Source: Eremomyces bilateralis CBS 781.70 (Eukaryota). Taken from it: a stretch of DNA of 64,000 nucleotides. The stretch is from NCBI GenBank assembly GCA_010015585.1, contig ML975150.1. One strand, 5' to 3'. Under the pieces are notes generated by a model. That model made no database searches, was not told the origin of the DNA, and saw nothing but the letters and a program-made list of their open reading frames with translations. The translations under genes were made by a program, and so were the position numbers. Below are positions 3,811-48,264 of the stretch, in pieces. Every line of letters begins with the position of its first letter. Position 1 is the first letter of the stretch.

Positions 3811-3860
3811 TAAGGCCTTGCTTGGCCTACAACATTATTAACTTCTTTACATGATTATCT

Positions 3861-17461: not shown

Positions 17462-18158
17462 TAGAGGTATTATGAATAAATTCGAGGGATTCGTCGTCGT
17501 AGTGAAATTCGAACCGGACTAGGCAAGTCGCTATTATTCTAAAAACAATTGAATTGGGAATATAAACTATATCATTCTATGTAGGATCATCGCATCCAAA
17601 ATAGCGAATTCATTCCTTGCTTTGTTGCTTTATGGTATACAATATGTTGACTCTTTGGCCTATCATATGACTGCCGTAGCATCATGTCTTAAAACCAACC
17701 TAGAACAATGGAAAATAAGCCTTTTATGATGCTTCTGTGAATATAATTCGAGTACTCTTTTAAGGGAGATTCGAAGACTGCGAACTCTAGCTTCGTTCCT
17801 CCAGGCTCTCTTTGAGCGAAACCCGCTTGCGGGTTCGCATCTCCTGTATTGCAAAGCTAAAGAAGAAGAGCTATTGTCGCACGTGATGTGCTAAAATGGT
17901 TGGGGGTGAGGTGCTGTTGTTCCAGCAGCGAAGTTGTTGTGTGTAAGTTGTGTGTAAGTTTTTTTTGTTCTAGCTGAATGCCTGGTTCCCCGGCCCTACA
18001 GATATACGAGAGTCACGGCAAGATTATTAATGCAGTTTGTAGCCTTGGACTCCTAGAGCTCATGCCTTGGCCTGCGACAGCTATCTACGACGTGTGCGCG
18101 ATGTCCAAGACTTCGACAGTTGACTTAGTCACGTGACTATCATTCAGGAGACAGGCCA

Positions 18159-18406
18159 TGTCGCATTTCGCGTGGGTGACGATTAAGCAAGTTGGCTGCT
18201 TTAGCTCAGTTGCTGTAGAGTCATAACGCAAGTTGGTCTTGACGATTCCCATTGTTCCCCAAAAAGGAGATGTAGCTAGCAAAACAGTTGAAGGTAATTA
18301 AATACAAGGGAAAACACTAAGCTGTCCGAAATAGGCCTAGCCTAGGGGTAATAGGCAGTGAAAGGAAAGTTAGGGCAGTAGAAACCAACAGGGGCATCTT
18401 GCGACA
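18159..18406. mobile_element. Solo LTR, family B
   Basis: TGTCGCA...TGCGACA termini; TSD GGCCA (18154-18158, 18407-18411). Confidence 0.9.
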
Positions 18407-19733: not shown

Positions 19734-19870
19734 ACATACAGCAATGGGAGTTCCCCATAACTCTCCCACGAGCATAAAAGCTGTCGAAATCAAACCGTAA
19801 ATACCACCGAAAAACGTGGGTCCGTCGAAAGACGTGGTTTCTCCTTAGTTTTTCAGTCTCGCTCTCAATC
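19734..19870. mobile_element. Second Starship-family left junction: 5S rRNA 3' fragment (19734-19756, minus) fused to an element left-arm sequence
   Basis: ACATACAGCAATGGGAGTTCCCC is identical to 26011-26033. 19757-19830 aligns with 26034-26107. 19839-19870 matches 26285-26316 at 30/32. Confidence 0.8.
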
Positions 19871-25691: not shown

Positions 25692-26010
25692 GGTTACCTA
25701 TTATGGAGAGGCTTGATGCTTGCAAATCGCAACTGGTGGAGGCGTGGAGATCGGGTATTCCCTGCACTCGGGCTGGTACAGACCGTCCAGTGCTCAACTT
25801 CTCTGCTAGTGCCGTAATAAAATAGGGATAATTTGTCAATAAGCCACGTGGGTCTGTACTTAAAAAGAAAAATATCGCGCTAGCGGAGACGGGATGTTGC
25901 CGGTAATAGACTAATAGTGCTATTTGGGGGCGGGAATTCGGGAGCTACCGGTAGTCACCCACCCTCCTCCTTCTCGATCCTGGCAAAAACGAAGCAAAAA
26001 AACAAAAAAA

Positions 26011-26040
26011 ACATACAGCAATGGGAGTTCCCCTATGGTC
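26011..26040 (-). rRNA. 5S: 3' fragment of a split 5S rRNA gene, followed by a Pol III-type T tract
   Basis: Minus strand GACCATAGGGGAACTCCCATTGCTGTATGT, then TTTTTTTGTTTTTTT. The 3' GCTGTATGT pairs with the 5' ACATACGGC of the half at 46689. Confidence 0.9.
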
Positions 26041-26144
26041 TCCCAGCGGTATAAACGAGGTCGAAAACAGAGGGTCAATACCGCCGAAAGACGAGGGCCC
26101 GTCGAAAATACACTCTGGTAAGGATCGTAAAGATGCCCTTTCTC

Positions 26145-26284
26145 TGTTGAAATTAGGTGAAATTGCTTGCTTGATTGTTCTAAGATGTTGAAGACATAGG
26201 ATTCCTTTTATAGTAGGAATTGTTGTGCTAACACTTTGTCCTGTGTTCTCTTCCTTAACACTTCCAGTCATCCTTTTTCCAACA
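26145..26284. mobile_element. Solo LTR, family D, in the Starship left arm
   Basis: TGTTG...CAACA termini; TSD TTCTC (26140-26144, 26285-26289); absent from the homologous arm at 19.8 kb. Confidence 0.85.
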
Positions 26285-28112
26285 TTCTCCCTAGTTTTCC
26301 AGTCTCGCTCTCAATCAGGAGTCCTGTTCGCAGTTTCTACAATCTCGCCCTCAGTCAGGATCTCCGTTCGCAGTTCTACAGTACTCTTCTTCAGTTCCAG
26401 TTCCATCGGGTTCGGAGGTAGTCGACACTATCAACGCTCCACGCAGCCAAAATCCTCGGCGTCTATTCCAAGATACGTCTTTGACTATGGCGCCACGACG
26501 CACTATTCGAAAGGGCGAAGCCGGAGAACAAGAGGCAAAGGAGCTTCTAGCTGGCTTCCAGAGCAAGCCCCTCGACGATACGGTCCCAGTGTCGGACAGA
26601 ACTACCTACAAGCGCGGCTACGCCATGGGGCTCTTCAAGGAGTACGAAACACCTGGACTTATCATGCCTATGACCTACACTCACATCCTCTAGATACGTT
26701 CGAGACGTCCTACACCGCGAGCCGGACGATACCTGGTTATCCCTTTGCAGCTCTTCACCAGTAGAGGTAGCCTTGGCTCAGGATACATGTCGTGCCTTTC
26801 TCCAGACCTACGTCTCCGACTCTTGGGACTCCCGGGTTGCGTTGGGAGATCAAGAATCCGAGGAGGTCTGACAGGTTAATCGAGCATCATCTGTCCTAAC
26901 AGTTGTGGAGAGCTCTTGTGCAGGAAGGAGATGAATCAGTCCTTGCACCCAAAAGAAGAGAGAACAGGCATGCCGCGAGGCAATGGAGGCTCGTCAATCC
27001 AAGTGGAAAACTGATTTTAGGACCCGTGTGGGAGATACCTAATGTAAGGTCTGCCCTCTATTTGTGCGGAGAAGGATACTAACGTCCCTGTAGTAGATTG
27101 TCCACGACCTTCCTTTGCTTACCGGTATCTCTAACGAACTTAAGCGCCAAAAGCGGGCCGCGACTGCTCAGGATATAGTAGTCATTATGCAGGCTCTCCT
27201 GAATCGACACGGCGATATCCTTCACTCTACGGCACAACTTAGCGACTTCGCCATGATCGTGCTCTGTATGGCTATTGGCGGATTCCGGACCGACTGTCCT
27301 AGAAACCTGAAGTATGCAGACGTCAGGATAGGGCTCGCTAACCTTAGGGGAAAACGAACGCGTTCGTACGAATCCGAATGCCAGAAAACAATCTGCGAGT
27401 GGCTTCCCTAAAGCCTGCGAGCCCCAGGCGCGAGTTTGCCGTGACCATTTTGCCATGCCGACTGGTCTGCCTTACTAGTCACATCATTGGCCGCGCTCTA
27501 GCACGGCGTACTTTCAGGGCCGGATATACGTCCTTTAGTGAAGTTTTGACCTAGCCGAACCTTCGACGTTGCAAAATTCTTTTCCTTCTGTGGGCACAGG
27601 GACTGAACGATTCCCCATTCGTCGATATCAGCGGGTCACAGTTCTACAGGATATGGTATCGCTACTACGAAGTCGCCGGCATAGAGGATCCTCCGATCCC
27701 CTACTCTATGCGGGTCGGTTCCGGGGGCAAAATTATCGGAATTCTCGGCGAGCTGCTTGAGAATTGGATGCTTATACACAAATCGAATACCCACCAGGAG
27801 TATTATTTCCCGGACTACATGTCTCAGAATCTAACGTGTGTCACGCTGGGCGTGCTCGCGCCTCCTGAGGATCAGGCGGTTGCATATATTGTTACATTGC
27901 TTGGCGCGCAACTCGCAAAAAAACTGCCAAATTTGGGTAACAACTTTTGCAATCGTATAGAATCCTGGATTTCGCCTCCAATACGCGTATCTATATCAAT
28001 TTGACGCGTTTTTGTACCGATTAGCGTGTTTATCGTGATGCCTGACAGGTATTAGTCTATATCTGTTGCGGAAGACGTGTTTTGATGATAATCTAGAGCG
28101 GCATCGACGCCT

Positions 28113-29246
28113 ATACGCCCCCCGCGAGGAATCGATGGAAGCAGGCGGTCTAAACTCGCTCGATATCTCCTTCTCAATTGGGATAAGAAGGAGATAGCCG
28201 ACGAGCTCAAAGTCAGTCGGAAGACAGTCTATAATTACGAGAAGAACATCCTTCCCCACGGTTCAGTTCGAGCGCCTCCGACAGGGCGTACTCTTGGACG
28301 ACAGCGGCGAATGACCCGAGCGGATGAGGATGCACTCCTACAGAAACTGTTATATGATGGATGGTCATACCTAGACGAGATGGTATATTGGTTATATATG
28401 GAGAGGGATGTCAGCGTTAGCCAGTCAACGGTCTGTCGAATGCTAAAGAGACGTGGATGGAACCGGAAAGAACTCCATCGGATTGCACAAGGGTAGAGCC
28501 GTGAGCTCCGGGATAGATTCAAGCAGGAGATGAGCCAATACGATACGGAAGATATCGTCTGTCTTGATGAGGCGATCTTCAACGACAAGACGGGATGGAG
28601 ATACCGCGCCTATGCACCCCGAGGGCATACCGCGAATACCTATGATACGGTGCGTCGAGGGGAGACTCACGGTGTAATTGGGGCATACTGTACGGATGGG
28701 CTCCTGTGTGTGGGTATCAAGAAGGGGTATTATTCGCGCGTTGACTTCCTTGAATGGCTCCGGGATACGCTCCTACCGTCGTTGGCGCGGAGATCACCAC
28801 GACCTCAATTGGTATTAATGGATAACGTCTCTATCCATGTTGCCGAAGAGGTGATCCAGATGATCGAAGCAGAGGGACATCTGGTTCTGTTTTCACCACC
28901 GTACTCACCAGATTTTAACCCAATCGAGATGGTGTGGTCGGTCCTGAAGGCCTGGATTCGACGCAATCATCTCTTCGTTAGAGAGCGCTTCCCTAATTAC
29001 GCTCTGTTCCTCCATTTCGCCATTCGAGCAAGTCGGTGCGATAGGTTCGCACTAGAACACTTCCATCACGCTGCAGATGGAACATACTTAGATGCTGATC
29101 AGCTAGAGGAGCTTCAGCAGCAGCTGTTTGAATATGAGACTGGGGAAGGATACACCGAAGAGGTCCCTATAGCTAGGGAGTTTCCTGTTGCTGAAGCGTT
29201 CCCTATCGTCGTGCGCGACGACGGGCCTGACGATAGAGATGTTTGA
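28113..29246 (+). pseudogene. DD34E transposase (IS630/Tc1-like) with one in-frame TAG at 28494
   Basis: HTH KEIADELKVSRKTVYNY; CLDEA, LMDNVSIH, PPYSPDFNPIEMVWS. Hand count gives 34 residues between the second D and E. Start position is approximate. Confidence 0.88.
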
Positions 29247-29487
29247 TGACAGCATCCCTTTGTTTTAATTGACTCATTTTATATATTGTCTCGACACTCT
29301 AGGTAGTAATAATATAGCTTCTGGATAAGTATGTGGTCTCAAATACCCCGAAAGAGAGAGCGCTGCCGAGATTCGAACCCAGATTATCTGTTCCCCCGAC
29401 CACCCCGCCGAGGGACTAGTGGGGACAGGCAAACGAATGAGAGATAGGGAAAGAAGGCATGATCTAGGAACATCCCGTGGTAGAACT

Positions 29488-32131
29488 TCATATAGGATCA
29501 TCCCGTGGAGGGAGGAAACCTCCTCCGGTTCCGGTTACCCTCGGATTACGCATATCCAGTAGGGCGGATGCTGTTCTCGCAGCATCGATATGGCCCTTGC
29601 CCTTAACCTCGCTCTTGAACAGGCGTAGATCTGACTTAAACTGACGTGCCATACCGTCAGTGATACCCTTCGCTAGAGCGAGTGAGTATAACCGTGTATC
29701 TGGATCAGACATAGTCTTCATATCATCTAGCGTCCAGTCGTTTTGTACAATGGTCTCCTTAGCCCGCATCAATTTATCCTGACGTATCTCCGATTGCGTG
29801 TTCCGGATCTTCCAATCAAAGAACTTTATCACTATCTCGATATCGTCTTCGTCCGTGTTGATGGGGCTCGATGGAGCGCTTTGGGAGATGGGGGCGACAG
29901 AAGCTTGACGAGGGCGGTGGTCTTGAGCAGACTGAGGGCGATATTCAGTGTTCGCGAATGTGGTAGGCGGATGGTTGATATCCGACGGTGGCCCGCGAAA
30001 CTGATCTACACTAGATATCGTTAATACCAAGCTAATTCAGGTAACAGATTACTTACGGAGTGCGATGATGGTCCGATCCAGGAAATTGGAACGGCGTGCC
30101 GGCGTCGAAACCACGTCCGTATAACGACGATTGCCCGTATGGAGGGCGAGCCATAGACACCTGTTCTGCCATCTCTCTTTGTTCCTGACGTTGAGATCGT
30201 CGCTCGTTATTCCTCTGCATCTGTTCCTGCATCTCCATCTGCATCTGTATCTGTGTCATCTCCATTATCTGTTTCTGAGTCTCCTGGAACGATTCCATCA
30301 TCGATTTCGACTGCTGTGCGGCAGATAACTGCTTTGGGCGACGAGCAAGCTTATTCACGGCCCCATCCTGTTGCCAGACACGAACCAATTTGACAGGCGG
30401 GCTGGTCAGCGTTGCGTCTCCTGCGCGTATCGCGTTAGCCCAGGACTGCTGATGGATAGCGGTCATGTTATAATGGAGATGATCTGTTGGGTCAACCCAA
30501 CAGAAACCACGCCAGTTGTTACAGTTCTCGTCGTGGCACTGCCATCGATCGGTGATCTGTTTCTCATAGGCGCCAGCCACTTGTATACGCTCCATCCGAG
30601 CGTCCTGTTGAGATAACAGGTTCTGCGTACGACGAGTGGTCTTTGAGGAAGAGTCCGGGGCAGAAGGCGAGCTGGTAATCCGTACAGGGAGAGCATGATC
30701 TTGTGCTTTTGGAGTCGCTGTCTTTATACGCTTTTTTCCCTTAATACCCTCGCAGGTTATCCGGACAGAGAATATCACCCGGACTGGGGAATGGGGCCGT
30801 TCGGTAACGATATCCTCCGACATCGTATGGATACGTTTCGCGACGACTTCAGTAAAGTCCGTGATAGTCTGAGTCTGTATAGAACCACGCCCGGAAAGTG
30901 AGCGGCAAGAGACATCGAGATCACCGTAATCCCAATCCTCCCCATCAGTCCTCTCCTCAATCTTCGCTGATATCTCATCCTCAAGGACCGCGATATCAAA
31001 CTCGCTCGCACGGGACTTCTCTTTCTTCTCATCTCAGGCCTTCTTCGCATTGATATAGAGGTACCATTCAAGAATTATAGTCCAATCGAGTGGGACGGTA
31101 TCGAAATCTCTGTTTAATCGGCCGGAGGCGACTTCGTCGTTGACCTCTGACGTCGTCGGCGAAAGAATGACCATCTGTTCCCGGTGTTTCTTTAGCGCAC
31201 GCTTATCCATCTCAAGCTGGAGATGGTAATCGGTCGAGTCCTGGAGAGGCCTGAACCAGTCTCCCCGTTCAGGATCTTGATCATGGGGGGCCTATCCTGT
31301 CTAGCCCTGGTACGATCAATACCGGTCGAGAGGAATTCTTCAATCCCCTGTTGGTCTACAGGCGTCCTGATATGTGGCTGACGTTTTTGGCGCTGTATAA
31401 AACGGATGTCCTTGCCCGCCTTCGGCTGACCTTTCTATTTCTCTAGTTCCTCCCTTTGCATCCTCTTCGCTTGCTCGTGGTCCCGGGTAACCCCAGCTAG
31501 ATCATCGCAGATGACACTATATGCCCATGCTCTACCCGGTCGGTTATCTGGTGCCAAGTCACTGTCTAACCAGGCCTTATTCGAAGCGATAGTCGGGGAG
31601 TTATCGACATAACGAGATATCCCTGCTTGCCCTGGGCGCCTCTGGGCGTTGGGAGTAGTATCCACGTCGGTATCTGTATCATCCTCCTCTACTGATTCTT
31701 CAGTGCCAGTCTCCTCCTCTGTAGGAGGAGGTTGGCTACTTCCTCCGGACTTTTTAGCAGGTTGCTGCTTCGCCCTAGGTTTAGGAGGAGCGGTCGTTTT
31801 CTTTCGTTACCGTGGTCAGTTGCTCGGTCGTATCGCCGGATGAGGTTTCCTTCGACCGTTTAGCTCGCTGTTTTGGTGGTGCTTTGGGCTTAGAGGTGGC
31901 CTTTGACTTCGCGGCGGGTTTCTGTGCCGGTTGACTAGGAGCCTTCTGTTTCCGGGCCGGAGGAGCCAACACCTCCTCGTGGCGGTCTGCAATATCATCT
32001 CCAGCGTCTTCGTTCACGATCGGGTCCTCGAAGGTGACTCGACGACGGTTAGATCGGAGTCCATACGAAGGTGGAGGTATGAATTGAGAAGTTTGGGTCT
32101 TGCCCTTGGTCTTGGGGGGAAGAGGAGGCAT
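29488..32131 (-). pseudogene. Second gene of the TIR element: large unknown protein with a Cys/His motif (stops/frameshift; intron ~30011-30056)
   Basis: ORF pieces 31781-32131, 31435-31665, 30053-30823 and 29488-30030 chain together. Motif RWQCHDENCNNWRGFCWVDPTDHLHY...WANAIRAGDATLTSPP. Confidence 0.65.
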
Positions 32132-33632
32132 CTTGACCGGTCTGGCGTTCCACCCACGGTTAAGGAGGTCAAGATTACGAGAAATAGATCGATTCGTCAT
32201 ATAGATCACGATAAACACGTTGATGAGTATGAAAACACGTTAATTGGTACGAAAACGCGTCAAATTGGTATGGGATATGTGTATTGGGGGCGAAATCCAG
32301 GATTCTATACGATTGCAAAAGTCGTTACCCAAATTTGGCAGTTTTTTTGCGAGTTGCGCGCCAAGCAATGTAACAATATATGGATATGCAACCGCCTGAT
32401 GCCCTTTTCTCCCTCCTGGCGGATTTGTCTTCCACGGCGGATCCCCATGCCCCATGCCACCTGAGTGAGGACGAGGATAAAAAGCTTCTTGAGCGACGAG
32501 ATGTGCAAGCTCTCCAGGACCATAAAACGGGACAGCGCAACCTATTGGACCGGTTATCTTTCTTGGCTATTCGAGAGAAGTAGGAGAAATACTTTCGCAA
32601 GGTACAAGATGCAAGGGCGCTGGGCGGCAATATCACCATTGCCGAGTTGCCAATTTCGAACAGCGATGTCATCGTTGATGCAACGCCCGTTGATGAAGAA
32701 GGCCGGGCTTCATTTATTAAGTTACTGGCTAGCTACCCCCGCCTTTTGAAGAGAAGTAAGAGGTATGACTCTAACCGAAACGCTCAAGATCCATGTCCTC
32801 GGTCTATCTGTGTCCTTTGCAATCCGACTGGGAAGGTTTTATCTTTCTCACAACATTCGTCTCTCACCAGGCACTTTCAGATCAAACATTTACGACATCA
32901 TCACCTAGATCAAGGACGCGAATGCCCAGTTCCTGACTGTGGCCTGACTATTGACGCTGGTGTATCTCCGTTTTACTGTCACTTAGAACGCCAGCACGGC
33001 AAACACTATACACCCGCTGCTCATCGACGCATCGAACGTTCGATCTGCGTCCTCTGCGATCCGACCGGGCGTCAATTGTCCTTTTCCCAGCGCCAAAATT
33101 TGACAGAACATTTCAAGGCTGATCATCTACCCTCGGGCCACCTCGATCAAGCTCGTCAATGTCCAGTTCCTGACTGCGGGTCAATGATTGAAGCTGGAAT
33201 AGACCCCTTTTGCGGTCACTTGCAGTGCACGCATGGGAAGCATTACACGCCTCATCTGTGCAAAACTGGGTTAAAGCAGCGTGAACATCATCGATCATAT
33301 AAGCGAGTTCAACCAGCATCCGAACTTCAGAATAAGAGCACAGTTACGGTTAATGTAAAACGGAAAGCAGATGATGATACCGGGAGGAAATTGACCGACT
33401 TAGGTCTGCTCGAGCAAATGCTCCAGGAGGAAGTCTTTGCTGTACATTCGGATGAAGAACCGGTTACGAAGAAACGAAAGCAAAACGGAGTTGCAGATTA
33501 TTGAAGAATTCTAAGTTGGGTAACAGTTGACAGCATCGGTATCATAAAGCTCGTCAATGGAATTGGGATATAACTTAGGAGAAAATTGCAGCGTAAATCA
33601 TCTTCTTCCAACCTTCGATGCTATATATGTGA

Positions 33633-34380
33633 TTATAAGTAGTCATCTGACCTTGACGCGGCGTAGCAATGCTCACCCTGTGATCGCTTTGATCTGCTCC
33701 CGCTGTGTGCGGATTTCTCCAGGTCTGCAACCCGCTCTTCGAGGCTCGATATACCGGAGATAACGCGCTGCATTTCTTGTTGGTGATATCCTTGAATTAT
33801 ATGTATCACCTTATCCGCTGCAGACTTTGCAATTGAATGGGTATAGGTGACATGAGCTAGGTGTTGCTGCAGTGTAGCCATTGCAATATCTGACTGGTCT
33901 TGCTTCATTCTCCAGTCGGCTACGTGAATGTCCATACCGCGGTTCTTGTAAAAGTTAACATTTGTTCCTCCCAATAAAGAAGGATCAACTTGCCGTATTC
34001 TCCGTCTGAACATTAAAATCTGGAGACTCAGGGTTCAGCGGCCTACTATTAAGAAGCGTCGCTGATGGAGCGATGTGTTCCGTGGGACGGGAGTCCGGAT
34101 CCGGCAGGACAAAGTTGTCGTGTAACATATCTAATGCGTGCTCTACCATAGATAAGAACGTTGACGGAATCTGTCTTGAAGTGCTCTAAAAGGGCATTGT
34201 CAATATAAACCCATTTTCATTTGCTGAGGACCCGGAGCTTTCAGTCGCCCCAGACGCTTGAAATGACCACTTCTCCGGCACGACTCTACCGAAAATGTTC
34301 TGCGGCATCCAGTCCCATATAAAGATGAGTTGTTCTCGTTTTCGTTCACTGATCGCCCGGCTAAATGCCATCTGGGCCAC
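33633..34380 (-). pseudogene. Degenerate hypothetical cargo gene with C-terminal coiled coil
   Basis: ORF pieces 34186-34380 and 33633-34013 look protein-like (IWDWMPQNIFG; ISSLEERVADLEK); family not recognised. Confidence 0.4.
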
Positions 34381-35245
34381 TTTCGCCGGTTACATGTTCA
34401 TACCTAGAACACAATCTACGAAAAATGAGGAGCCACCCGTGGCACAAAGTGACATTGCCTCAGAAAACTCAAACCATATGGACCATATGGACAAGGAAGT
34501 GAATGCTGAGCCAGCAATCGACGGACAACGAGCACTCCCAAAAGAGAGTGGAGAGACCCTTTGTCTAGATCAAGTAAGAGAAGTCGCATGCAAACTACGA
34601 CAAAGAGATCGGAGTAGGCAGGGCCAGCCCTCAAGGGTAGAAAATATTTAGTAGGGTAGGGAGCCTCGTTCTATTAGTTAGACTTATCCGACTGATTCTA
34701 CTGAATAGTTGGATTTCAGGGTGATTTGATCATAAGCAGCAGAGTTGTATTGTGTGAGTTGCGTGTTCTAGAGCGAGAGAGGTTGCGCGAAAAGATTCGA
34801 AAATTGTTAAGAGTAACCTCCCTCCCTGCGTGCCGAGCCAGATCATGGGTACTTTTACTTCAGAGCAAGCCAGACACTGCACACACAGTGATATTTCTAA
34901 AGTTTTGTTTAATTCGTACGCTGTAGCCATTCCTTAACTTCGGGCCAACTTCTATCTAAAAAATTACGTTGGCATCGCCGCCTTGATATTATAAGGAAAA
35001 TAGATTGCCGAATACTCCTGTCTTCGGTATTTAAGTACACTTACTACTGAGTAGTAGGAGCCAGAGTTTCCAAAATTTGGTCGACTAGCACACCTTATAA
35101 ATCGCCCGGACTTTCAAACCCGTTCTTGGATAATCCTCAAGCTCGCTCTTCGAACCTAGTCACGTCGAAGCTGAACGTTGTTCTCTCTATCTCCTCCTCC
35201 TTAGTTCAGAAGTCCTTAAGCCCCCAATATCTTGGATAAGGGGGC

Positions 35246-36132
35246 TCACAGGTCTCCAATATTGCATTGCATCTCGATCATCAAAACCTTGAAGGCGGGC
35301 AGCATAGAATACTCCACGCTCCCAACAATGCCAACGTCTCGGAGCTCAAGAACTTCGAGCGTGCTAATCTCAAGTAGGCTTTCTATAAGGAAGGAGAATA
35401 CGTCATGGTCTAAAGAAAGTGCATCTGGCGATCTAGGACCGGAAATTGAGGCTTTTCTGAGCTTGCTAAATGCGGCTGTAATAGCTGCCTTTGTTTTAAA
35501 CAATTCCAGCGGCCACTTGCTAGAGCCACCCACATTTACGGAAAGAATTCGAAGGGTTGGGAGCATACGAAGGACGAAGAGGCTACCCCTCATCGAGCCA
35601 CCAACAATCAGCGTCACCGAGGACTGATTCGACTGGTTGACCCATCTTTCCGCATCGAGAAGATTAACTCGCCTCAAGCTAAGTTACGCCCCTTAACAAG
35701 GCTCCAGAGATCCTTTTAGATTTCGGGCATTACTTGGACCTGTTGAATAAAAGTACAGTTGGCTCAAATATTGCCCAATCTCTGTCACGCGTCCTTGTAA
35801 CGCTTCCAAAGCAGAGGATATATTTTAATAAATGTTCCTCTTTGTTCACATCGGAGGACCTCCACCACTTGATCTGCTGCTGAGTCCGTTCATGCTGTTG
35901 TAGACCAAAGAACATGGCATCATGAAGCATATGAATTTCAGAGCTCAGCTCTTCTCGTTTCATCTTCCAATGGGCAATTCGAATCTCTAAATACTGAACC
36001 AATATAAGTCAAGGTTAACATTAAAAAAAATGAGTTATGTACTAAAAGATCTTCTAGGTTGCTGGGAACACGAGGGCCGATCCCTTTAATAAGTCTATTG
36101 CGAATATCTTTGGGCGAAATAGAGCTTGTCAC
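35246..36132 (-). pseudogene. Degenerate hypothetical cargo gene
   Basis: Colinear ORF pieces 35938-36132, 35730-36002 and 35246-35677 in TA-enriched sequence; family not recognised. Confidence 0.35.
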
Positions 36133-36460
36133 TCCTAGAGAAGGAAAGATGGCTGCTGATGAATGCTTCTGATAGAGTTGGATCAGTTCATTGATTGGTA
36201 CAGGATGATGCTCCTAGTATACGGGAAATATCGGCCGAACAAGCGCCAGAGGCTTTCGTGCTCTTATAAGAGTATCGCTTAGAGAAGAGCCGCCTTGGTG
36301 CGACTATGAGGTCATTGCAAGGGGTTTCAATGGAGAAGATATGTAAAGGCAATAGGATGCTAGAAGGAAGTAAGGTTTTCGTTGGTTTGCTTGTTTTTAG
36401 CAAACTGATATGGTATTGGGGACGAGTGGAAGATTTTTTTTTACCATATACGCGAGTATC

Positions 36461-36579
36461 TGTAAAGGCTCAAACCTCGAAGGATTTGGTATAGCTGGAA
36501 CGCTGTTGATTTGCTAAAGAGAAAAAGGAAAAGATCTCTTTCACTGGCGATCTGCTATTTTACATCTGTGACTGTCACA
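36461..36579 (-). mobile_element. Internally deleted family-A solo LTR, inverted
   Basis: Reverse complement reads TGTGACAGTC-ACAGATGTAAAATAGCAGATCG...CCAAATCCTTCGAGGTTTGAGCCTTTACA, matching both ends of 15745-15932. TSD only partly preserved (GTATC/GTAGT). Confidence 0.75.
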
Positions 36580-37320
36580 GTAGTTTGACTTCAGGCAATT
36601 CAAACTCTTTTATACACACCTAAAAGTGCAGATTTTTGTGTTTAACCGCATGCCGTGGTCACTGCTGACGCTCCAGGAGCCGGCCATAGGAAAATTTCGT
36701 CGCAACGTTGTCGCAGCTACTGATTTGCGGAGAGCCTCCTTTTGCGCCCAAACAGTGCGCTTCCTCCACAGCATCGCCATCAAGCTTGCGCAGCTGGCGA
36801 AACTCATAAATGACGGTTATCCGAACTTTTGAGTCCCCTGGGAACGACGAGAACCTCCTATCTGCCGTAGGGCTGCCGTGGGAGGCGATCTCATGCAACG
36901 TCGCCACTCTGCTTGATACCTCCAATCAAAGAAACGCGATCCCGAAAGAACCCGCATGATGACTAAGGAGTAACTTAACTTATATAATCTGCTTTTGTCT
37001 AGCCGTGAGCCAAAGCTGTGGCTGTGTGCTCTTCCTCCTAAAAATAGATATATCACGAGGGCGGGAGCGGCCATCTCAAGGCATGACAAGCGTACAGTGA
37101 CTTGCGAAATCAGTGTCGGGCTTTTCCTGCATACAAAGCGAAGTAGCAACTCACTTCAACGTTATACGGCGCTAGCAGGGAGGGCGCCGACCTGCTTATG
37201 CTACACCATTGTGAAGAGTTTATGAGAAATAGGCTGCTGGCTCGATTGCCTCTAGTTGTTTGTGAGCATCACTGCACGGTGAGGACGCTCGTATCATGAA
37301 CCATGGAAGACTTTGACAAG

Positions 37321-38699
37321 CTAAGCACTTATATTGCATTCAGCATTATGTTCTTGACTTTCAAGTACACTCTGTCTCTTGGGGAGACTTGATAGGTTAC
37401 AATGAAATCTCTCATCGCCGTCTCCGTGCTGCCCATCACTGTGACTTTCACCACTTTCGTCTTCCTCTGATGTTAAATGATCACCTCGAAATGAGGAAGC
37501 AAAGGATGATGATTTATGATCAAAGCTCCTCTGTCTCTTCCTGCCTCTGAAATCTTCTTCGCTGCACGTTTCAAGATCTTCTAAGACATCGTCCCGTTGT
37601 CTCTTCTTTGGGCTTTGGCTCCTGCTCTTGACTCGGGCGGCAAAAATATGCCTACATTTGTCGCCAGACGCGTCCAGGATCCTGCTCGAGCCATCCTCTC
37701 CGTCCACAAGAACAAGCCTTCGTGAAACTCCCTGCCGTAAGAAAGTACTCTGTGCAAGAATAGTCCAAGCAAACCGAGCGAACAGACACTCCACGCTTAC
37801 ATCCATAAGTGGCTGCAGCGTGACATTATGGTATAGTTTCGCAAGCTCTCCTGTCAAGCCAGGGGCAAAGACATGGACAACCCAGGAACTCCCTTTAGGT
37901 ACAGCAACCAACCATTTCTGGTCGAACACAGTGTGAATATCCGATCGTAGCAAAATGGAGTTTCGAGCATCATCAGTTGGATCGGTCATAGTGGCGGGAC
38001 GAGAAGTGTATTGAAACATCATGTTTGAACTGAACCACGGCTCCTCACTCCGAGGAATGAGATGCGCAGCTTCCGTGCCCTCAGTGTGGCTGGTTACTCT
38101 GCAAGAAACATCGCGGGACAAGAGGATCTCTGTCAGGCCGCTCTGTCGTGGTAAGATGTCGGACCTGGGGATGCGGAAGATGTCCGATTTCCAAAAAGGT
38201 GGTAGGTTATCGTGGGGGAATTGAAAGTGGGCAAAGGATGGGATGATAGGGTATTTAGGATCTGAGAATAGTTTATGTTAGTTAGTATGTGGAATATAGC
38301 GGTCCAGCGAAACATTAATCCTCGAGACATACCGTCATCAGGGTCCTCTTTGATCCGGAAATAGTAATTCTTCAGCGTTAGGAGGGAGTCTGCCTCCGCT
38401 GCAATTCGTCGTCCTTTTCTCGTCTCTGTCAAAAATCCTTCCCAGGTGCAATTTGCAATTATCGCACAAGCAATCCTTGCCGTCTCGTGATGAATGCCCC
38501 CTTCAGAGCTATCCAGTGCTGGCAATACGAGAAGAATATTGTTTGTGTCTGGATATCCTGGATGGCGAAAATGCACATTGTATGAGTCATTGTTCTTAGG
38601 AAGAGAGGCACCAAGATCCGAGTGCGTTGGTGGTGGGTAGGGTTTGCGAGCTTGAAAGTTGGAGGAGATCGAAGCGGATGGAAGAGTGGTATTTGGCAT
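37321..38699 (-). CDS. Fungal HNH endonuclease-domain protein (HNH_2-type), 2 exons (intron 38262-38332)
   Basis: FRHPGY...GGIHHETARIACAIIA, YPIIPSF..FPHDNLP, RDVSCRVT...AAHLIP...NSILLRSDIHTVFD, LFARFAWTI. The frame looks intact after splicing. Confidence 0.85.
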
Positions 38700-39029
38700 T
38701 TGGGCTGTAGTGATTTGGTTTATTGGAGGAGATTGAGCGGGTGCAAGTAGGTGGAAAAGACCGAACTCTGGACTTTTGTATAGAATACCCTTTGTGGAAG
38801 CGATAATGTTGTCGATATGTGGATGGCTGCTTGTTGCTGTGGATGTTTGCTGTCGTCGCGTCAATAAAACTGCGCAGGTGTTCCAAACGCGAGGGTGCGC
38901 GATAGCACGTGACTTACCCACTCCCACTCTGCCATTAATTACAGTGTTAAGGAATACGCAATCGGTATAAACCAGAAATATACCAATAACAACGTCGGAA
39001 TTACCTGCCAGCTCTCTGCTGAGTATAAT

Positions 39030-42000
39030 TGCGCAGCGTAGCGGAGCAGTTTAAAATCCAAATGGGGCTCCTTTTCCAAAAAAGCACACACGCTCATTGG
39101 TCAGTTGAAAACTCTCTGTGATTGGTCCAAAAATTTCCTTGGCAAAATGATTGGCTGAGAAAAGGGTCCGGAAAGTTCCGTGTCTCTGTGATTCGTCCAA
39201 ATTACTTGGCAAAGTGATTGGCTGAAAAGTTCTTCCATCTCCGAACTCTGTGGACTTCGTTGTCGTCGCCGTCGCCAGGTCCTGCGCTCTCGTTACCTAC
39301 ATGGAGCACCTTTTCACTACTATCACGGCATCAGGCGAATCCTACATTTGGGGGAGTGAGACATAGCATCGTAAGGTATAGACAATTCGACAATGCAGAG
39401 TAGTTGAGTCTCACGGACAATGTCCATAGAAGAAAGTGAAGAGAAAGAAAGCAAGATCCTCGAGACATCTCCGGGCATCATCTATGTTCTTATACCGGCC
39501 GACAGTCCTGAAATCATCTACACGGACACTCGTTGCCTTCATCGTGTACGATACAGTGTCGTCTTGAGCGATTCCATCCCTCAAAATCAACCAGAGGAAG
39601 TCATGCGGGCGAAAGACTGTAGAAACATATGTGCATGTGGTCGAAGGTGGAAGAGTGAATGAAGTAGGGCCGGTCACATAGATTCTACTCAGCTCCTCTG
39701 CTTAAAATCTATTTGTTTTTTCATCTCTTACTCACAATTTTCTTCTCTACCTTATCGCTTTCCTGGCACCTTTGTCGACTCTCTATCAATTAACTACTAT
39801 CGGTCTAGCATCACAGTCTATATTGTCAATTGGAGATCTATCAAAGCGATCCCGCATGGCGGAGGTCAGCCTAAGTACTATACCTCCTCCTGGAGGTTAT
39901 GCACCCGACCCCCCTTCCGATGTTCCCGACCCATCCAATCCACTGCATCGATGTATTCACTGTAAACATCGGAAGGATGCTGCTTATGACCTGAAGCGCA
40001 ATGGAGAGTATTATGCTAAGTGTAAGGCTTGCCGTGAGAGTCATACATCTTCTGTAAGTGTGTTTCGAAGTCCCGCATCATATTCAAACTAATATTACCC
40101 TAGAGGAAGCGCCCTCGCTATCAACGAGATACAAGCGCATTAATCCAGAGGCAAGTGAAGCCTCGTCTACAGTCGGAAGGATTCTTTCCCCGAGGTCAAC
40201 ACGAGGAAGATACTCCTTCTCAAGCAGCAGTTCGCAGAGACTTCGTGGATATTCAACGTGAGCACCGTTCTCGCAGGAGACACGGTGAGATTGTCTCTTC
40301 GACGCCCAATTTCGATGACTTCGTTACACAACGGACGCGTCCGCCTGGACAGTATCCTGGCGCGACCCATGTTCCATCCCGGACTCCACCTAATCTGTCC
40401 CAGCTTGGAAATCCAATCTTTCCGCCTATTGAAGACGAGCAGGAGGATGGTGAGCAACCTGTCCGCGGTCCAATCTTCCGCCGATACTCCCTACCTTCAC
40501 TTCGCGGTCGAACTCGGAATCTATCTCGGTTTACTGGATCAAGCGCTCGGTCCGAATCCTCTAGAGGTTTACTTCGCGAACTTCAACCGCCTCCTAGCCA
40601 GGAGGCTCCCGAACTACAATACTTTCTGTGTAGACTCTGTGACACCTACCGTGAAGAGTCTCGGAAAGTGAGACATATGGAATCGTGTACCTATTGCAGG
40701 GATTATACTCCTGTATCTGAGCGTACGCAGTGGTGTTTGCAAGGTGGTCATGAAGTGAACCAGTCTTCGTGCATGGAAGATAAACAAGAGCAAGGAGCAG
40801 ATTCCGAGGCCTTATATTTCCTCAACTGTGTATCCTGTCGTCAAAGTACAGACGGGTGGATTAATAATGACCATCGCCGGAGAGCCCCAGAGCAGTCTCA
40901 ACGCCGCTCTAGCTTGGATCCTCCGAGAAGTCGCACCCCTTCGCGTCCAGGTCCCCATCGACGCGCTCGAGAACTTGCTACCGCGGATCTACTAGCCCCT
41001 AATCCTCCTATCGATTTCTCTAGTCTAACTCTCGGAACCACGGATCCGGCACTCACCGAACGCGATAAAACGCTTATACAGAACTTTCATCGAAAGGTCG
41101 ATTCTGTTAATATGGCCACCTGTGTCCGCTGCCATGAGCGATGGCTTGGGATAAGCTACGACGAGAACGGTGTTTGCAAGTCATGCCTTACCATTGATGC
41201 AAAGCGTGGCCCCGACGAACCATATCTCTGGAGCGATGAGAACAATGCCGATCCCGGGGAATTTCCGGATATTTGTCTCCCTAAGCTTTCTCAGATCGAG
41301 GAGATGCTTATCTCGCGTGTCCATACCTTTGTTGAGGTTCGGCAATACCGCGGCCAGCAGTACAAGTACTCTGGTCATATCTGTCACTTCCTCTCGAATA
41401 CTGCACGCGTTTATGCGCGTCTCCCTCTCTTGCCTAGAGAGCTAGATGTTATCATCCTTCGCCCTTCTAATCATGCTACGGATCCAAGGGTTAATCGTCA
41501 ATTCATTCGCGATTATCGAGTGCGTCGTAGCGCAGTGATAAAATGGCTCTACTTCCTTCAAGAACACCATCCTGCCTATGCTTCTATCGACATTGATCTA
41601 ACTCGACTCGACGCCTTGCCCGAAAACGGCTCAGTTGAAGAGGACCTGCTTATCTATGACCACCAGGATGAGCCCAATGTTGAAATGCAGGCAGACGACT
41701 TTGACGACCCAGAAGACGACGATATATCCCCGCCGCAAGCCAGTGCAGTCCCGGACTTGAACCCGGACCGCCAAGAGATCGATCAGATGCGTCTTGAAAT
41801 TGGAGCACGTAGAAGGGAACGGCTCCAGGCCAGTCAAGCACCCTTCATGACCATGCCATCCCTCCGTGCGACCCCTCTTGCAGACTTGAACAAATCAGTC
41901 CCATGTTTGACATGGGCTTTCCCTACACTGTTTCCATACGGGAGGGCGGAGTTTGCCACGCCAAGGATCCGAGCTATCAAGTACAACGAATTCGTCAAGC

Positions 42001-45000
42001 ATCTGCTTCTCTACAAGGATGGACGCTTCGCACAGCACCCTCGCTTTCGATATGTTGTCTTCAATACAATCATGAGGAGCCAAGTCAACTCACGCGCGAG
42101 CTTTTTCGTCAAGAAGATCCGCCCTGGTCCCACTGACTTAACAGTTGACGATCTTCGACGAGCTTTCGAGGAAGATACTCCAGAAGCGGAAGCTATGGTT
42201 AACTCTATCTCCCGTTACTCCGGCAGTATGCGCGGCACCCGTTCATTTTGGGCAGGAAAGCGTCGGGCTTTAGAAGCCGGTGTCCGACAACTCGGGTGTC
42301 CGCATCTCTTTATCACCTTCTCTGCAGCCGATTATCACTGGGATGATCTGATGCAATCCATGCCGAACTACGAGTAGTGGAAATCCGCCACTTCAGTACA
42401 ACGTATTCGCATTGCTCGTGATGCGGTCCGAGATAATCTATTGATTGTCGCGAATCATTTCCACCGTCGTTTCGAGGCCTTCCGGACCGAGGTGCTTATT
42501 CCAAAGTTTAACATCGTCGACTACTGGCATCGTTTCGAATGGCAATCACGCGGTAGTACCCATGACCATGGTTCATATTGGATGGAGGGTGACGGCTTAC
42601 CTAGTCCTGAACTTCAAGACAATATCGACCAACTGACGGAATTTGCTCGGTTTTGGGGAATCCACATCCATGCTATCAATCCAGACCGTGGGCGTGATTG
42701 GGTTCGTCCTGAGGAGAGGTCAGAACTGCAGATGCCGTTTGCGGACCAACCGAACACACTGCGCCATCTTTCCAACCTACTGAACCGTGTTCAGGTTCAT
42801 CATTGTACTAGGCAATATTATCTTCGTACTAATAAGACGACTAGCATTGAGGAGTGTCGTATTAAGGCCCCGTGGCCCATTACGACTACGCCAGAGATGG
42901 TGAAGGATCCTGGAAGATCGTGGTACCGTTCCCAATCCGAACGCAATGACCCAAAGCTCAACCAGTACAACCCGCTTATTACTAAGGCATGGTGCGCCAA
43001 TACGGACATCCAGCCCTGTACCGGTAAAGATGGAGTTATCTTCTATCTCGGTAAGTACACTACCAAGGCCGAAGAGGCATCAGAGTTATATCGTGATATG
43101 ACTTCAAAGCTCCTTCCGCGTCTCAATTCGAATCGCCCCTACCAATCACTCGTGGAAAAGACGATGAATCGTCTCGTAGGCGAACGGAATTGGTCTGCGC
43201 AAGAGATCTGCCATCTTCTCTTAGACCTGCCTTTGTGCTCCCAGAGTCGGATGGTCATCAATGTTGACTGTCGCCCGGAGCAGCAGCACGCTGAGCTCCA
43301 CTTCCTCGAGGATCATGAGAGCGGTGTTCAGGTTCGCGCTGGCAAGTCACTGCTTCAGAAGTATAAAGATCGTCCTCCGGAGTGCGATAGCATTACTTAT
43401 CTCGAGCTTCTGCGTGAATATGACCTCCAGAAATACCGAAGGCGACCTCGTGCTTCGGAACGGGTGTTGAACTTCTTCCCACGCTATCGTCCTGAAATCG
43501 ATCCAGAGAACTTTGCTCGAGTAAAGTTGATGTTGCACCATCCGTTCCGTGAAGTCGATGATCTAAAGGCATACCTTTACGATCCAGAGAAGACTTGGGA
43601 TACGTTCTACGAGGCTTAGGAAGAGTGTAAAACGTTTCATGAAGGCCATACTCCCGACGGGTATGAGGTGGAGATGCTAACGGGGGATAATGATGAGGAG
43701 CCACTCGATTCCGAGGAGGAGGATATTCTTGCTTCCTGGCAAGAGCTTGCACAAGTTTGCCCCGGTCGAGATAGTGCGCAGGTCGAGGACCCTGACCGCA
43801 TTGGCGACCGAGACATCGACCGTGCATATATCCTTGATGGCATGATCGGTAACTATCTCGACCTCGATGTCGAGTTCTGGAAACGGATAAAGGCGGACTT
43901 TCCGGCTAACTTAGTAGCCGTTGCTGCTGGGACATATGCTAGCCTAAATGGCAAACAGAAACTCTGTCAGGACCTCGTCATGCGTCACTTTCACGCCTAC
44001 CAGGAGCACCGGCCTCCGCCTCAGCTCCTGCTAAGCATCGATGGTAAGGGTGGGACAGGGAAGACGTACCTTATTATGATCCTTTCCGAGGCGCTTGAGA
44101 CTGTCGCGAGTGCGATAGGGCATACTACCTCCCCAATCGTTCGGGCTGCCCCTACCGGTGTAGCCGCGCATAACATTTCGGGTAAGACCCTTCATTCCCT
44201 ATTCCGCCTCACTCCGAAGGCCAAGCAGTACGAAAAGTTGTTAAAGCAAGCCGCTCAGGCTATTCAGACTGCATTCAAAGGTGTTCAATATATCGTCATT
44301 GACGAGAAGTCAATGGTTGGCTTGAAACTTCTTGCTTGGATTGACCGTCGATGTAATGAGATTTGGCCTGATCGTAGTGACCGTCCATTTGGTGGCCTCA
44401 ACGTTATCCTAGCTGGCGACTTCTTCCAGCTGCCGCCCGTTGGCGAGAAGCCGCTCTTTACCAGCCAGAACAACATTTCAAAGAACATCGATGAGAGCCA
44501 TGGCCATAGACTCTATTAAGGCTTCTTCCGAACAATTGAGCTAGACGTTGTTGTCCGTCAGCAGGGACCTGAGGAGGCAATGTTTCGAAATGCACTCGAA
44601 GACTTGCGAACCGGGAATGTCACGGTTGATAACTGGCGCCTTCTTGCTACGCGAGTTGCTTCTACTCTCTCGCCCAGTGACGTCTAAAGCTTCCAGGGTG
44701 CCCTTCACGTCTACGCCAAGAAGGCAGACGTCATTCAATTCAACCATACACAGATGCGCGAAAGTGGCCGACCAGTTGTCCTGATGATTGCAACTAATGA
44801 GGGGAAAGGTGCAGCGAGCGCCACTACCGAACAAGCCGGCAACCTGCAGAACACCTTCCCTATATCTATTGGTTCCGTGTCATGCTTACCGAGAATATCT
44901 GGACCGAACGAGGATTGGTAAACGGTACTATGGGTAATGTACGCGACATGGCCTGGGAAGCGGACGTTCAAGATCCCCGGAAGTCGCCTCCCACGGCATT

Positions 45001-45979
45001 ACTGGTTGCATTCGACAGCTATGATGGTCCATCCTTTCGAGAGGTTAACGGTGAAAAGCTCGTGCCTATATTCCGGTCCCGTCGAGACTTCGTTCGCGAT
45101 TCTGTCGCCTGCCTGCGTACCCAGTTTCCAATGGTTCTGGCGTATGCTATCACCATCCACAAGAGCCAGGGAATGACACTAGAAAAGGCAGTTTTGAACA
45201 TCGCTGATAAGCGGGACTTTGCGCCGGGATTAACTTATGTAGCTGTCTCGCGTGTTAAGTCGCTGAAAGGGGTGTTATTCGAAGAATCGTTTGATCTACC
45301 GCGATTGCGCATGCAAGTAACTGCTACAACTCAAGCTAGGAACGATGATGTCGCTCGGCGCGCATTGTATCACGTCGCGTCCTCCGTACATACTACATAC
45401 CGTCTACTCCTTGCGCAGCATGGCTAATGTGTCTATACAGGATCCTCAGCAATTCGCGGTCGGTTTCATGCCACCGCCTCTACGACGTGTTTAACTTCCG
45501 ATCCGATCATCCTCTCCACCTCGGAGGTCGTCCCCGCTACTTGCGAGTGAGATCGATACACCTACAACGGGGTCTAACCCGTCCGGCACTCAAGGTTCCT
45601 GAATGGAGATTTAGAGTGCTTAAAAACGTTCATAGTTTGCTTGATCGTCCCATCAATCAAAAGAACACCTCAATAAGGTTGGTTGTTAGGTGCAACCTGA
45701 GTAAGCGGGAATCGCTTGATTCATATCCTCTATAACGTTGCGGATATGGAGTCTGCGTAGATAGATCAAAATCAACGAGTTATAGTATATCATCTGCTGT
45801 TTATTTCATTATGTGGTTTAGCTATCGGTGAAACCAGTACTAATAAGCGCGTGTGATTGGCCGTAGAGGATCAGGACTTCATCAGCAAACTGTGGCTGGG
45901 TATGCTGTTAAAACTTGGGAGGTTCTGCTCCCTACGCTGCGCACCCCTTGGGTCCATTTATGACCCTCGGGCGTATTTT
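39030..45979 (+). mobile_element. Helitron2/FoHeli-like rolling-circle transposon with asymmetric terminal inverted repeats
   Basis: TGCGCAGCGTAGCGGAGCAG (39030-39049) versus CTGCTCCCTACGCTGCGCA (45925-45943). 3' hairpin CCCTTGGGTC/GACCCTCGGG (45945-45971), then ATTTTT. Exact ends uncertain by a few bp. Confidence 0.82.
39856..45427 (+). pseudogene. RepHel: HUH Rep endonuclease plus PIF1 helicase, with four in-frame stops and one frameshift
   Basis: LFITFSAAD, FEWQSRGSTHDH, YLGKYTTKAE (Rep motifs). GKGGTGKT, APTGVAA, IDEKSM, GDFFQLPPV, AITIHKSQGMTL, YVAVSRV (PIF1). Stops at 42375, 43617, 44517, ~44685; -1 shift near 44878. Confidence 0.92.
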
Positions 45980-46400
45980 TCTGGATGTCTGGTTCCGAGT
46001 ACCATCTTTTAAGACCATCACCCTTTGTCACTCTCCTGCGCACGTAGGCCCGGATATCATCAGTGATAAGGTCACTCTGAATAGGAATTATGTCGTCCAT
46101 ACGAGCAAATTTGCTGATTATAGACTCGATGTCTCGTTCTTGGCGGCTTGTCACAAGGAGATGGACATTCTTTCGGTAGGAGCTTTGGAAATCTTTCATC
46201 CACGAGAGCAATCCTTCGCTTGGCGACCCTGTCCTCGCGTTGCATTCATCAAGAGCATCGAGAACAATCCAGACTTCTTTTACTTGCAGGATCATCTGTA
46301 AGAAAGTCTTATAAAGTGCTTCACACGATGGTTGTCGATGTCCGTCTTCGTAAGAGGAAAGGAGAGTCTGTAAAGCTATCAAAGTATCTCCAGAGTGTAG
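45980..46400 (-). pseudogene. NACHT-domain gene fragment
   Basis: QPSCEAL..TF..M...VWIVLDALDEC...HLLVTSRQERDI...DDIRAYVR..V...LKRW; truncated at both ends. Confidence 0.8.
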
Positions 46401-46584
46401 GGCAGTCCAAATGAGCTCATCTGGATTAAATGATGAATTACGGAGGTGTACGAAGGGAGGGATTGCCGGGGGCGCAAAACATAAACCAACCATCTAATTC
46501 CCCGTAACGTATCCCTCGCTGACTAAGAATGTATGGTAACATTGTTGGCCAATGGCAGACAAGCCGAGTAGTACTACAGTGAGA

Positions 46585-46689
46585 GAGTTCCCCTATGGTC
46601 ACCCACCGTAGTACTATTCCATCTCTAACCTGCTTGAGTACGGCAGAGCGGACGGGATGCCCTATATTCAGGTTGATGTGGCCGTATGT
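46585..46689 (-). rRNA. 5S: 5' 105 nt of the split 5S rRNA gene
   Basis: Minus strand ACATACGGCCACATCAACCTGAATATAGGGCATCCCGTCCGCTCTGCCGTACTCAAGCAGGTTAGAGATGGAATAGTACTACGGTGGGTGACCATAGGGGAACTC. Contains the fungal 5S signatures CCCGTCCGCTC and TGGGTGACC and the helix AACCTG/CAGGTT. Confidence 0.93.
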
Positions 46690-48264
46690 ATCAGAATCTG
46701 AAGCCTTTCCAAATATAAACCTAGATTCTGGACTCATTCGCCTGCTTAGCGGGTCTGCTCAGTTTTTGCATCGGCTCCGATCTTCACAAAACGGAACACG
46801 AGCAAATAGTCGAAATGATCGAAATGATGAGCGAGAGAATAATTGTTTAACACGCGTAAGAAAAGCGAGGAGATCTGATGTACACCGAAGATAGCGCATT
46901 CTGAAGCGGCTGATGACTTGAGAATAGCTTTGCGTAGACTTGAACTGCAAGGGGTGCGTCTCCGAATTGCTGGATCGGCGCTAGAATCGGAGGCAGACGA
47001 CATCGTCGTGTGCGAAGTTGAGGTTATAAGGCATTTTTCGAAGGGAGAGAGTTATGCCGCATTTGATATATCACACGTCATGTCGCGAGTCTCCTAGGGA
47101 CATACTAGGAGCTACAGATGCCCAGCCCCCGCCACACCAGAGCTCTTTCGAACTCGTTGGTCAGACCTTCAAATGGCGTGCCGTTTGGAGGTCCAGCCTG
47201 TTTGTATCTGTACGATACCTCTTAAAGTGAATGGGAAGATTGTGAGGGCCTGGAACGAACTGTACACATTAGTTCTCATCAATGTGCGCATCTGATTCGC
47301 CAGACTGTTGTAGCATGAATATCCAACAGCTGCGACGCGTTACTTTTATCCCTCCTCATCTCATCCATCCCAACAGCGCGTATCCCACGCTCGTCGCGGA
47401 GCATCGACAGCCTCTCGATGCCGGCTCAACAGAAATGCCGACTTGCTAATCATAGGCCATCGCGACGCAGTGCGGCAGCGGGAGCGGAGCCGGTTTGAAA
47501 GTGAACCCTGGAGCGGAACGAGGCTCCACGGCTTCTACATCAAACGAGAACCAACAACGCCGAGTGGAGCCCGCTACGACGGTTGCGCTGGAGACTTTGG
47601 GATTCCGGAGCCTCATCCAGGCAAGATGGCGTCAAAACATGGGATTCACGGTCCTGTTGGAAGAGGACGTTGCGCTTGAGGACCAGTTTTCTGTAGGCGC
47701 CGGTATGGAGCCCGCCCCAAACACACCCCTCCCGCTATCGGGAAGAGCCGCATTGCCGATTCATCCCCCCCATTGGATGCTTCAGCGTCAACTCAGGACG
47801 GTGTGAAACGAAAGTCCATTATGATTCATGATCTAACAATGGTCAACAACACTGACAGGAATAGATGTCTCTCGTGGGAACTGATCGCATGGTGATGCTC
47901 TCCTGATACCTTCGCTAGGCACGGATGCTCTTGGGTACACGGATCTCGGTTCAGCAGGTATATAATCCAGTCATGGACAGCTTCACACTTCCTGTCTTCT
48001 GCTTCATCTTCAGATCCATTCAGTCTTTGCAAACAAAGTCGTGACGAATTTCCTTGACTCATTCTTTCTGCTAGTCGGTTTTCTCTATCTGCTTTGGTTG
48101 CTGGCATTCATCGCTCTCTATATATCTACCGGCAGGTCCAGTCTTTACATACGACCATCCCCAACATTCATTGTTGAAAAGCATTTTATATTGCATTCCT
48201 TCTCGCTCTGTAGCCCACAAACGAACGAATCTCCTTCACGAATCGAACTATCAACCCCGTCATC

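Follow-up and report, generated by a model that had tools for sequence, protein, structure and literature searches.

A dead Starship of probable Arwing-family origin in a split 5S rRNA gene of Eremomyces bilateralis

The window analysed here is a 64,000-nucleotide stretch of contig ML975150.1 from Eremomyces bilateralis CBS 781.70 (GenBank assembly GCA_010015585.1), numbered from its first letter, and it holds a 5S ribosomal RNA (rRNA) gene on the minus strand that lies in two pieces with a 20.6-kb insert between them, a decayed Starship-like element headed by a broken DUF3435 tyrosine recombinase, the captain (Table 1). An initial annotation of this DNA had described the cut, a 16-bp direct repeat at both junctions with 20,560 bp from one copy to the other, and a 119-nt 5S gene with paired ends once the insert was removed, and all three descriptions held. 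The cut was recovered by Rfam, by reading of the sequence and by a 5S sequence profile, and the 16-mer is exact, with two occurrences in the whole window at precisely that spacing. Rfam (RF00001) reported a single 5S gene in the window, at 46571–46689 (minus strand, 64.4 bits), with helix I pairs marked as non-standard; the final 14 nt of this match (46571–46584) are supplied by element DNA. Positions 26011–26024 and 46585–46689 were joined by a script, producing a 119-nt sequence with a canonical 3′ end, which was judged by helix pairing, folding and the fungal 5S profile. The occupied copy has 3/9 helix I pairs and the joined gene 9/9; folded to minimum energy, the joined sequence takes the three-armed 5S shape. 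The profile, built from 32 distinct intact full-length fungal 5S genes on metagenome contigs, aligned with positions 2–118 of 119 in the joined sequence (90.1 bits), whereas its alignment with the occupied copy was limited to 2–106 (81.7 bits).

For comparison of 3′ ends, fungal 5S genes were collected from metagenome contigs by a 20-nt scan, which gave at least 116 loci; 89 of those listed had at least 40 nt of downstream sequence. A T-run followed the common motif by 25–31 nt in 86 of these 89 genes, and the joined gene has its T-run at the same distance. Six contigs of run X4, which comes from another organism under the same species label, carry an intact 5S that reads past the position equivalent to 46596 into a 3′ end identical to that of the left fragment. 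Beyond the 5S 5′ fragment, no T4 run was found within about 90 nt of the element end, and this, together with the poor pairing of helix I, agrees with the earlier statement that the element does not restore the 3′ end or terminator of its target. The split copy would be non-functional. Nucleotides 1–105 of a 5S gene should include the internal promoter, so that transcription of the split gene, which keeps them, may still run on into the element end. In the left host flank, at 25944–25956, some 55 nt past the terminator of the 5S, a 10-nt string is identical to the 5S sequence beside the 16-bp repeat; the profile match there is weak (E 0.1), and the string may be accidental or an ancient footprint.

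The first gene inside the insert, 446 bp from the left boundary and reading inward on the plus strand, is a tyrosine recombinase, as had been proposed: it is a DUF3435 homologue that matches P0001, an intact 793-aa E. bilateralis paralogue (DUF3435 match, E 5.7e-16), from end to end. Alignment of P0001 by tblastn gave blocks at 26487–26645 (50/53), 26695–27354 (158/222), 27348–27899 (154/184) and 32392–33501 (302/370), covering the whole 793-aa length at 71–94% identity by block. An open reading frame (ORF) at 27555–27881 matches two DUF3435 proteins of E. bilateralis CBS 781.70 at 88% and 83% identity; the window captain ORF alone gave a weak Pfam match to DUF3435 (E 0.0098). Two GT..AG introns were read from the DNA. 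The reading frame is interrupted by a 4,526-bp Tc1-like transposon, by nonsense codons at 26869, 27552 and 32581, with another possible at about 27091, and by frameshifts near 26905 and near 27350. The captain is full-length but broken, a pseudogene. In an alignment of P0001 and 23 relatives, all 24 of which match DUF3435, R233, Y372, R375 and Y406 are invariant (24/24) and K268 is present in 23/24. The conserved Arg, Lys, Arg and Tyr are the catalytic positions of tyrosine recombinases; the window captain keeps its Arg and Tyr positions, and has Asn at the near-invariant Lys268. Searches of solved-structure sequences with P0001 and with the 24-sequence profile matched no recombinase, and returned only weak matches, to C2H2 zinc fingers, in the captain C-terminal region (best E 0.0015); zinc fingers in captains were noted earlier for Enterprise. 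Indices of repeat-induced point mutation (RIP), read against their customary thresholds, were mildly RIP-like in the captain 5′ half (0.96 and 0.99), and not in other parts. Several captain paralogues are present in the E. bilateralis genome, including the fragment P0002, and summed contig depth over the captain 3′ half is about 4–6 times that of single-copy parts, a depth that is not a copy number. A contig of run X3, a run that holds spliced contigs and is only guessed to be RNA, omits 51 nt at 32540–32592 with CT..AC ends; on the opposite, minus strand this gap is an intron with GT..AG ends, antisense to the broken captain.

Table 1. Features of the split 5S gene, the inserted element and the upstream junction, in window coordinates.
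Feature	Position	Strand	Remarks
Second junction	19734–19870	+	T-run, 23 nt of 5S 3′ end, ~100 bp like element left end
RNA polymerase III terminator of split 5S	25996–26010	−	T7-G-T7 on RNA strand, read from sequence
5S 3′ fragment	26011–26040	−	nt 90–119 (30 nt; true 3′ end)
Left copy of 16-bp direct repeat	26025–26040		Within 5S 3′ fragment
Inserted Starship-like element body	26041–46584	+	Repeat-to-repeat spacing 20,560 bp
Element-borne 8 nt resembling 5S nt 82–89	26041–26048	+	6/8 identical
Captain 5′ part, DUF3435 tyrosine recombinase	26487–27872	+	P0001 residues 1 to ~428; tblastn, DNA reading
Nested Tc1-like DNA transposon	27873–32398	+	4,526 bp; ~165-bp terminal inverted repeats
Captain 3′ part	32399–33504	+	P0001 residues ~428–793; tblastn; in-frame stop 32581; two C2H2-like zinc-finger repeats
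HNH_2 (PF13391) cargo gene	37321–38699	−	Intron 38262–38332
Nested Helitron	39059–45844	+	~6.8 kb, ends approximate; DUF6570, Helitron_like_N and PIF1 helicase ORFs
NACHT/NPHP3_N fragment beside right end	45882–46493	−	Matches only later part of both domain models
Perfect 10-nt palindrome, element right end	46568–46577	.	7 nt from 16-bp core
5S 5′ fragment	46585–46689	−	nt 1–105; Rfam, 5S profile, sequence reading
Right copy of 16-bp direct repeat	46585–46600		Within 5S 5′ fragment

The 16-bp repeat, referred to below as the core, corresponds to 5S nt 90–105. With the element-borne nucleotides next to its left copy included, the att-like stretch shared by element and target extends to 22/24 bp (26025–26048 versus 46585–46608), and the 5S profile aligned with the left junction over model positions 82–118. 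The palindrome at the right end of the element has a 9/10 copy in the 5S gene at 46608–46617, at the same 7-nt distance from the core but on its other side; with up to one mismatch allowed, four matches were found in the window versus 0.66 expected, and the mirrored palindromes (46568–46617) may be recombinase binding sites. A search for terminal inverted repeats of the element found none (alignment score 13 versus a shuffle mean of 16.3 ± 2.1). The core occurs in 0/89 other fungal 5S genes among the metagenome matches listed, and an exact 32-nt scan of the metagenomes across it returned 0 loci. Since it is absent from all 89 of the listed genes, the core is specific to the 5S of this lineage.

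The main copy has a counterpart 6.3 kb upstream, a second junction of this type. It resembles the left end of the element at 79% identity over 107 nt and 94% over 32 nt, and has the same 5S position and orientation as the main copy; its outer flanks are unrelated and five of its junction nucleotides differ. No further element sequence follows it, and the matching 5S 5′ part was found nowhere in the window by Rfam. This junction represents an earlier insertion by the same lineage, now truncated, in another 5S copy. The adjoining part of the window (1–19700) is a transposon-rich island, with direct repeats resembling long terminal repeats (LTRs) at 10302–10489 and 15744–15932, inverted repeats of about 300 bp at 3513–3805 and 16447–16741, 12.8 kb apart, a DDE_1 fragment, and a NOD-like receptor (NLR) gene with NPHP3_N and ankyrin repeats (11259–12991).

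Two transposons are nested inside the element, and the initial annotation had listed them as an element of about 4.5 kb with terminal inverted repeats, which measures 4,526 bp, and a Helitron of about 6.9 kb, which is present at about 6.8 kb with approximate ends. Its solo LTRs were recovered in part, as one LTR-like fragment of about 105 bp (36466–36570; 88–90% identity to the repeats at 10302–10489 and 15744–15932), the only other sequence of this sort being a dispersed repeat of about 200 bp at about 34734–34941. The Tc1-like element carries helix-turn-helix and DDE_3 transposase ORFs with a stop between them. Tc1/mariner insertion is expected to create a TA duplication; the flanks here are AT/AT (27871–27872 and 32399–32400). 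Three unexplained ORFs lie on its minus strand (29488–30036, 30053–31033 and 31435–32239). The ends of the Helitron were placed by an A|T site, a CTAA terminus and a hairpin, and are backed by contig depth and loose ends. Its ORFs are broken by in-frame stops, and its Rep/helicase interior (39783–43754) falls on one contig, with single-copy depth among the source-run contigs, the ends being repeated. Internally deleted Helitron derivatives are present elsewhere in the genome (contig joints 39551>43701 and 39856>45037), and the Helitron described here may be the sole full-length copy, itself stop-broken.

The cargo of the element is sparse, comprising the HNH_2 gene and the NACHT fragment, both unrelated to movement, and a region of about 5.5 kb has few recognisable genes. 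The HNH_2 intron is absent from a spliced contig in an RNA-like run, which confirms it, and is also supported by an E. bilateralis paralogue that is 98–99% identical. Upstream of the HNH_2 start codon, in the same frame on the minus strand (38940–38970), is a Walker-A-like GxxGxGKS motif, for which no link to the right-end NACHT fragment was detectable. The NACHT fragment showed no paralogy to the NLR at 11259–12991.

Published Starships were compared by way of four articles (PMC11162782, PMC12153272, PMC9156397 and PMC10104507). The gene erebil1_347678, which has the same number as the P0001 locus tag, is assigned to fam09 in Table S4 of PMC11162782 (Gluck-Thaler & Vogan 2024); Table 1 of the same article gives Arwing as the name of family 9. 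E. bilateralis is represented there by one genome with 15 recombinase genes, three of them fam09, and an elementCount of 0. Neither the 16-mer nor sub-strings of it were matched in the portion of the article's supplement that was searched, outside which Table S13 (curated repeats) may lie. A host gene of the window is 100% identical to its own database entry alone, with the next match at 53% identity, so that the genome of the window is in the database and is without a close sequenced relative; taken with the E. bilateralis matches, this indicates that species. According to the same source, 5S rDNA holds 23% of 222 curated insertion sites, with at least five distinct 5S target sites, and the insertion sites of Enterprise, Arwing and Voyager are mostly 5S, with direct repeats of 6–16 bp (PMC11162782). 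The description of the insert as a Starship-type element is well founded, with an inward-reading DUF3435 captain first, clean direct repeats and a 5S location. Two accompanying claims of the initial annotation were not sustained: the family is probably not an undescribed one, because the paralogue P0001 is already classed as fam09 (Arwing) and both 5S targeting and repeats of 6–16 bp are published, and the direct repeat, called long, is at the upper limit of the published lengths and does not exceed them.

The element resembles Arwing (PMC11162782) in the fam09 label of its captain's paralogue, in its insertion in 5S rDNA with a repeat inside the published range, and in having the captain first and reading inward, and differs from it in that its repeat lacks the Arwing core target motif CCCG/GGGC, in the distance of its lineage from captains outside Eremomyces, and in being dead and small. 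Osiris, an Enterprise-family Starship of Aspergillus fumigatus (PMC12153272), likewise inserts specifically in 5S and fragments the gene, and its insertions cluster where 5S copies cluster, to which the two junctions 6.3 kb apart may be compared; Osiris differs in captain family, in its size of 37–138 kb and in being active (PMC12153272). Voyager of Macrophomina phaseolina (PMC9156397) is always found in a 5S rDNA copy, which it is predicted to disable, and so is similar, but its insertion point is 20 bp away from the 5′ start of the 5S, in contrast to the present site at nt 90–105, near the 3′ end. Voyager also has annotated terminal inverted repeats, unlike this element. Bacterial elements that integrate in tRNA genes usually leave their target with a functional 3′ end, and in this respect the present element is unlike them, giving a poor imitation of the 5S 3′ end (helix I 3/9, no nearby terminator). 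It is like them in that a core sequence is common to element and target, and in its apparent site-specific recombination at a conserved small-RNA gene, which in bacteria is the work of tyrosine integrases (analogy in PMC9156397).

Taken with the anatomy of the locus, the homologies, the captain lesions and paralogues, and the second junction, all of which were observed directly, these comparisons make it highly probable that what is lodged in the 5S gene is a dead Starship of the Arwing family (family 9). In the proposed course of events, an Arwing-family Starship would have entered a dispersed 5S gene by captain-mediated site-specific recombination, through exchange between an att-like site borne by the element and 5S nt 90–105 (16 identical bp; 22/24 when extended), and the insertion would have severed the last 14 nt and the terminator, disabling that 5S copy. 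Later, a Tc1-like transposon entered the captain frame, and a Helitron and small repeat fragments the cargo region, and the captain acquired its nonsense codons, its frameshifts and the substitution of the near-invariant lysine. Recombinase-mediated integration is proposed here by analogy with Starship Hephaestus, the mobilisation of which was shown experimentally (PMC10104507). Given its lesions, the element is now unable to move on its own.

Several observations weigh against this assignment. The Arwing label is indirect, being the published label of the paralogue P0001 and not the outcome of a phylogeny. The captain search, against a library of 1.84 billion representative proteins, returned 328 proteins at E ≤0.001 and 44 at E ≤1e-30, and the nearest captains outside Eremomyces were no closer than 25–34% identity; because of this distance the captain lineage appears, from sequence comparison, to be a deep branch. 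The CCCG/GGGC motif is missing from the 16-bp repeat, and also from the repeat as extended to 24 bp. The element has no terminal inverted repeats, a lack shared with the Enterprise Starship. When contigs of the source runs and of X4 were compared over 32401–47400, X4 matched the 5S only, and no empty site was seen, with one genome of the organism and no flank in X4. Among the source-run contigs listed, none bridges the right junction, and they break inside the repeated 5S.

The size of the element bears on what its ancestor was. After subtraction of the Tc1-like element, the Helitron and the small repeats, about 8.9 kb remain, so that the earlier calculation of a core of about 9 kb was correct. 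Published Starships go down to 15,020 bp, and elements below 15 kb are discarded by starfish (PMC11162782); a 19,097-bp Starship, Janus h4, and a 5S-rich hotspot are described in the A. fumigatus study (PMC12153272). At 20,560 bp the element as it now stands is above the starfish cut-off and within published sizes, and its core of about 8.9 kb is below the cut-off. The suggestion of a minimal size holds as arithmetic for the core obtained by subtraction, and not for the element itself, which falls inside the published range, Starships of 15–19 kb being known. The small size may be due to later deletions, and secondary loss fits equally well because the NACHT fragment is partial and the unique interior is gene-poor. 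It is conceivable, if rather doubtful, that the ancestor, until three other transposons entered it, was an autonomous Starship of about 9 kb, with a captain, a gene with an HNH nuclease domain and little else, on a deep, Eremomyces-specific branch of Arwing, and with an att-like site that co-evolved with the host 5S. The absence of the core from 89/89 listed 5S genes, the 22/24-bp match and the mirrored palindrome 7 nt off would favour such a compact, co-evolved ancestor.

That the element represents a naturally minimal (about 9 kb), previously undescribed 5S-targeting Starship family is an improbable reading. It would account for the 8.9 kb left after removal of the nested elements, for the 25–34% identity to the nearest captains outside Eremomyces, and, with starfish dropping predictions below 15 kb, for such elements having been overlooked; against it, the paralogue P0001 already belongs to fam09, insertion in 5S and a 16-bp repeat are already on record for the Arwing group, and the size may be secondary, given the partial NACHT fragment at the right end and a single-copy interior with few recognisable genes. 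A Crypton is a small element that encodes a recombinase only, without cargo, and a Crypton-like tyrosine-recombinase transposon would share with the present element a small core, the lack of terminal inverted repeats and a DUF3435-type recombinase. This origin is very unlikely, since the recombinase lineage carries a published Starship-family label, unrelated genes (the HNH_2 gene and the NACHT fragment) are aboard, and the parts other than the captain vary in summed contig depth, as expected for cargo that differs between copies. An assembly or rearrangement artefact that placed unrelated 5S fragments together, for which the breakage of source-run contigs in the repeated 5S and the want of a bridge over 46585–46689 among those listed might speak, is the least credible of all, since the fragments are exactly complementary (nt 90–119 and 1–105) with an overlap of exactly the 16-bp repeat, the captain stands at the expected end, and another, independent junction built in the same way is present at a distance of 6.3 kb.

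The element is therefore best regarded as a dead, previously unannotated member of a known 5S-targeting Starship family, an ordinary but clean example that leaves the current picture of Starship biology unchanged. New here are the second, decayed junction at 19734–19870, the 22/24-bp match to the 5S and the lineage-specific 16-bp target. For Eremomycetales, where the survey had 15 captain genes and no annotated element, it provides a cleanly bounded Starship inserted in a 5S gene, and it illustrates that a single genome suffices for the boundaries, without an empty-site comparison, if the target is a recognisable RNA gene. If the compact ancestor were real, there would be a class of compact, host-locked, 5S-specific Starships linking Cryptons and giant Starships, and such elements could form a hidden class because their size is below the 15-kb threshold that the standard Starship finder applies. 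The 16-bp core, the 24-bp match and the mirrored palindrome are possible guides to how captains choose the 5S.

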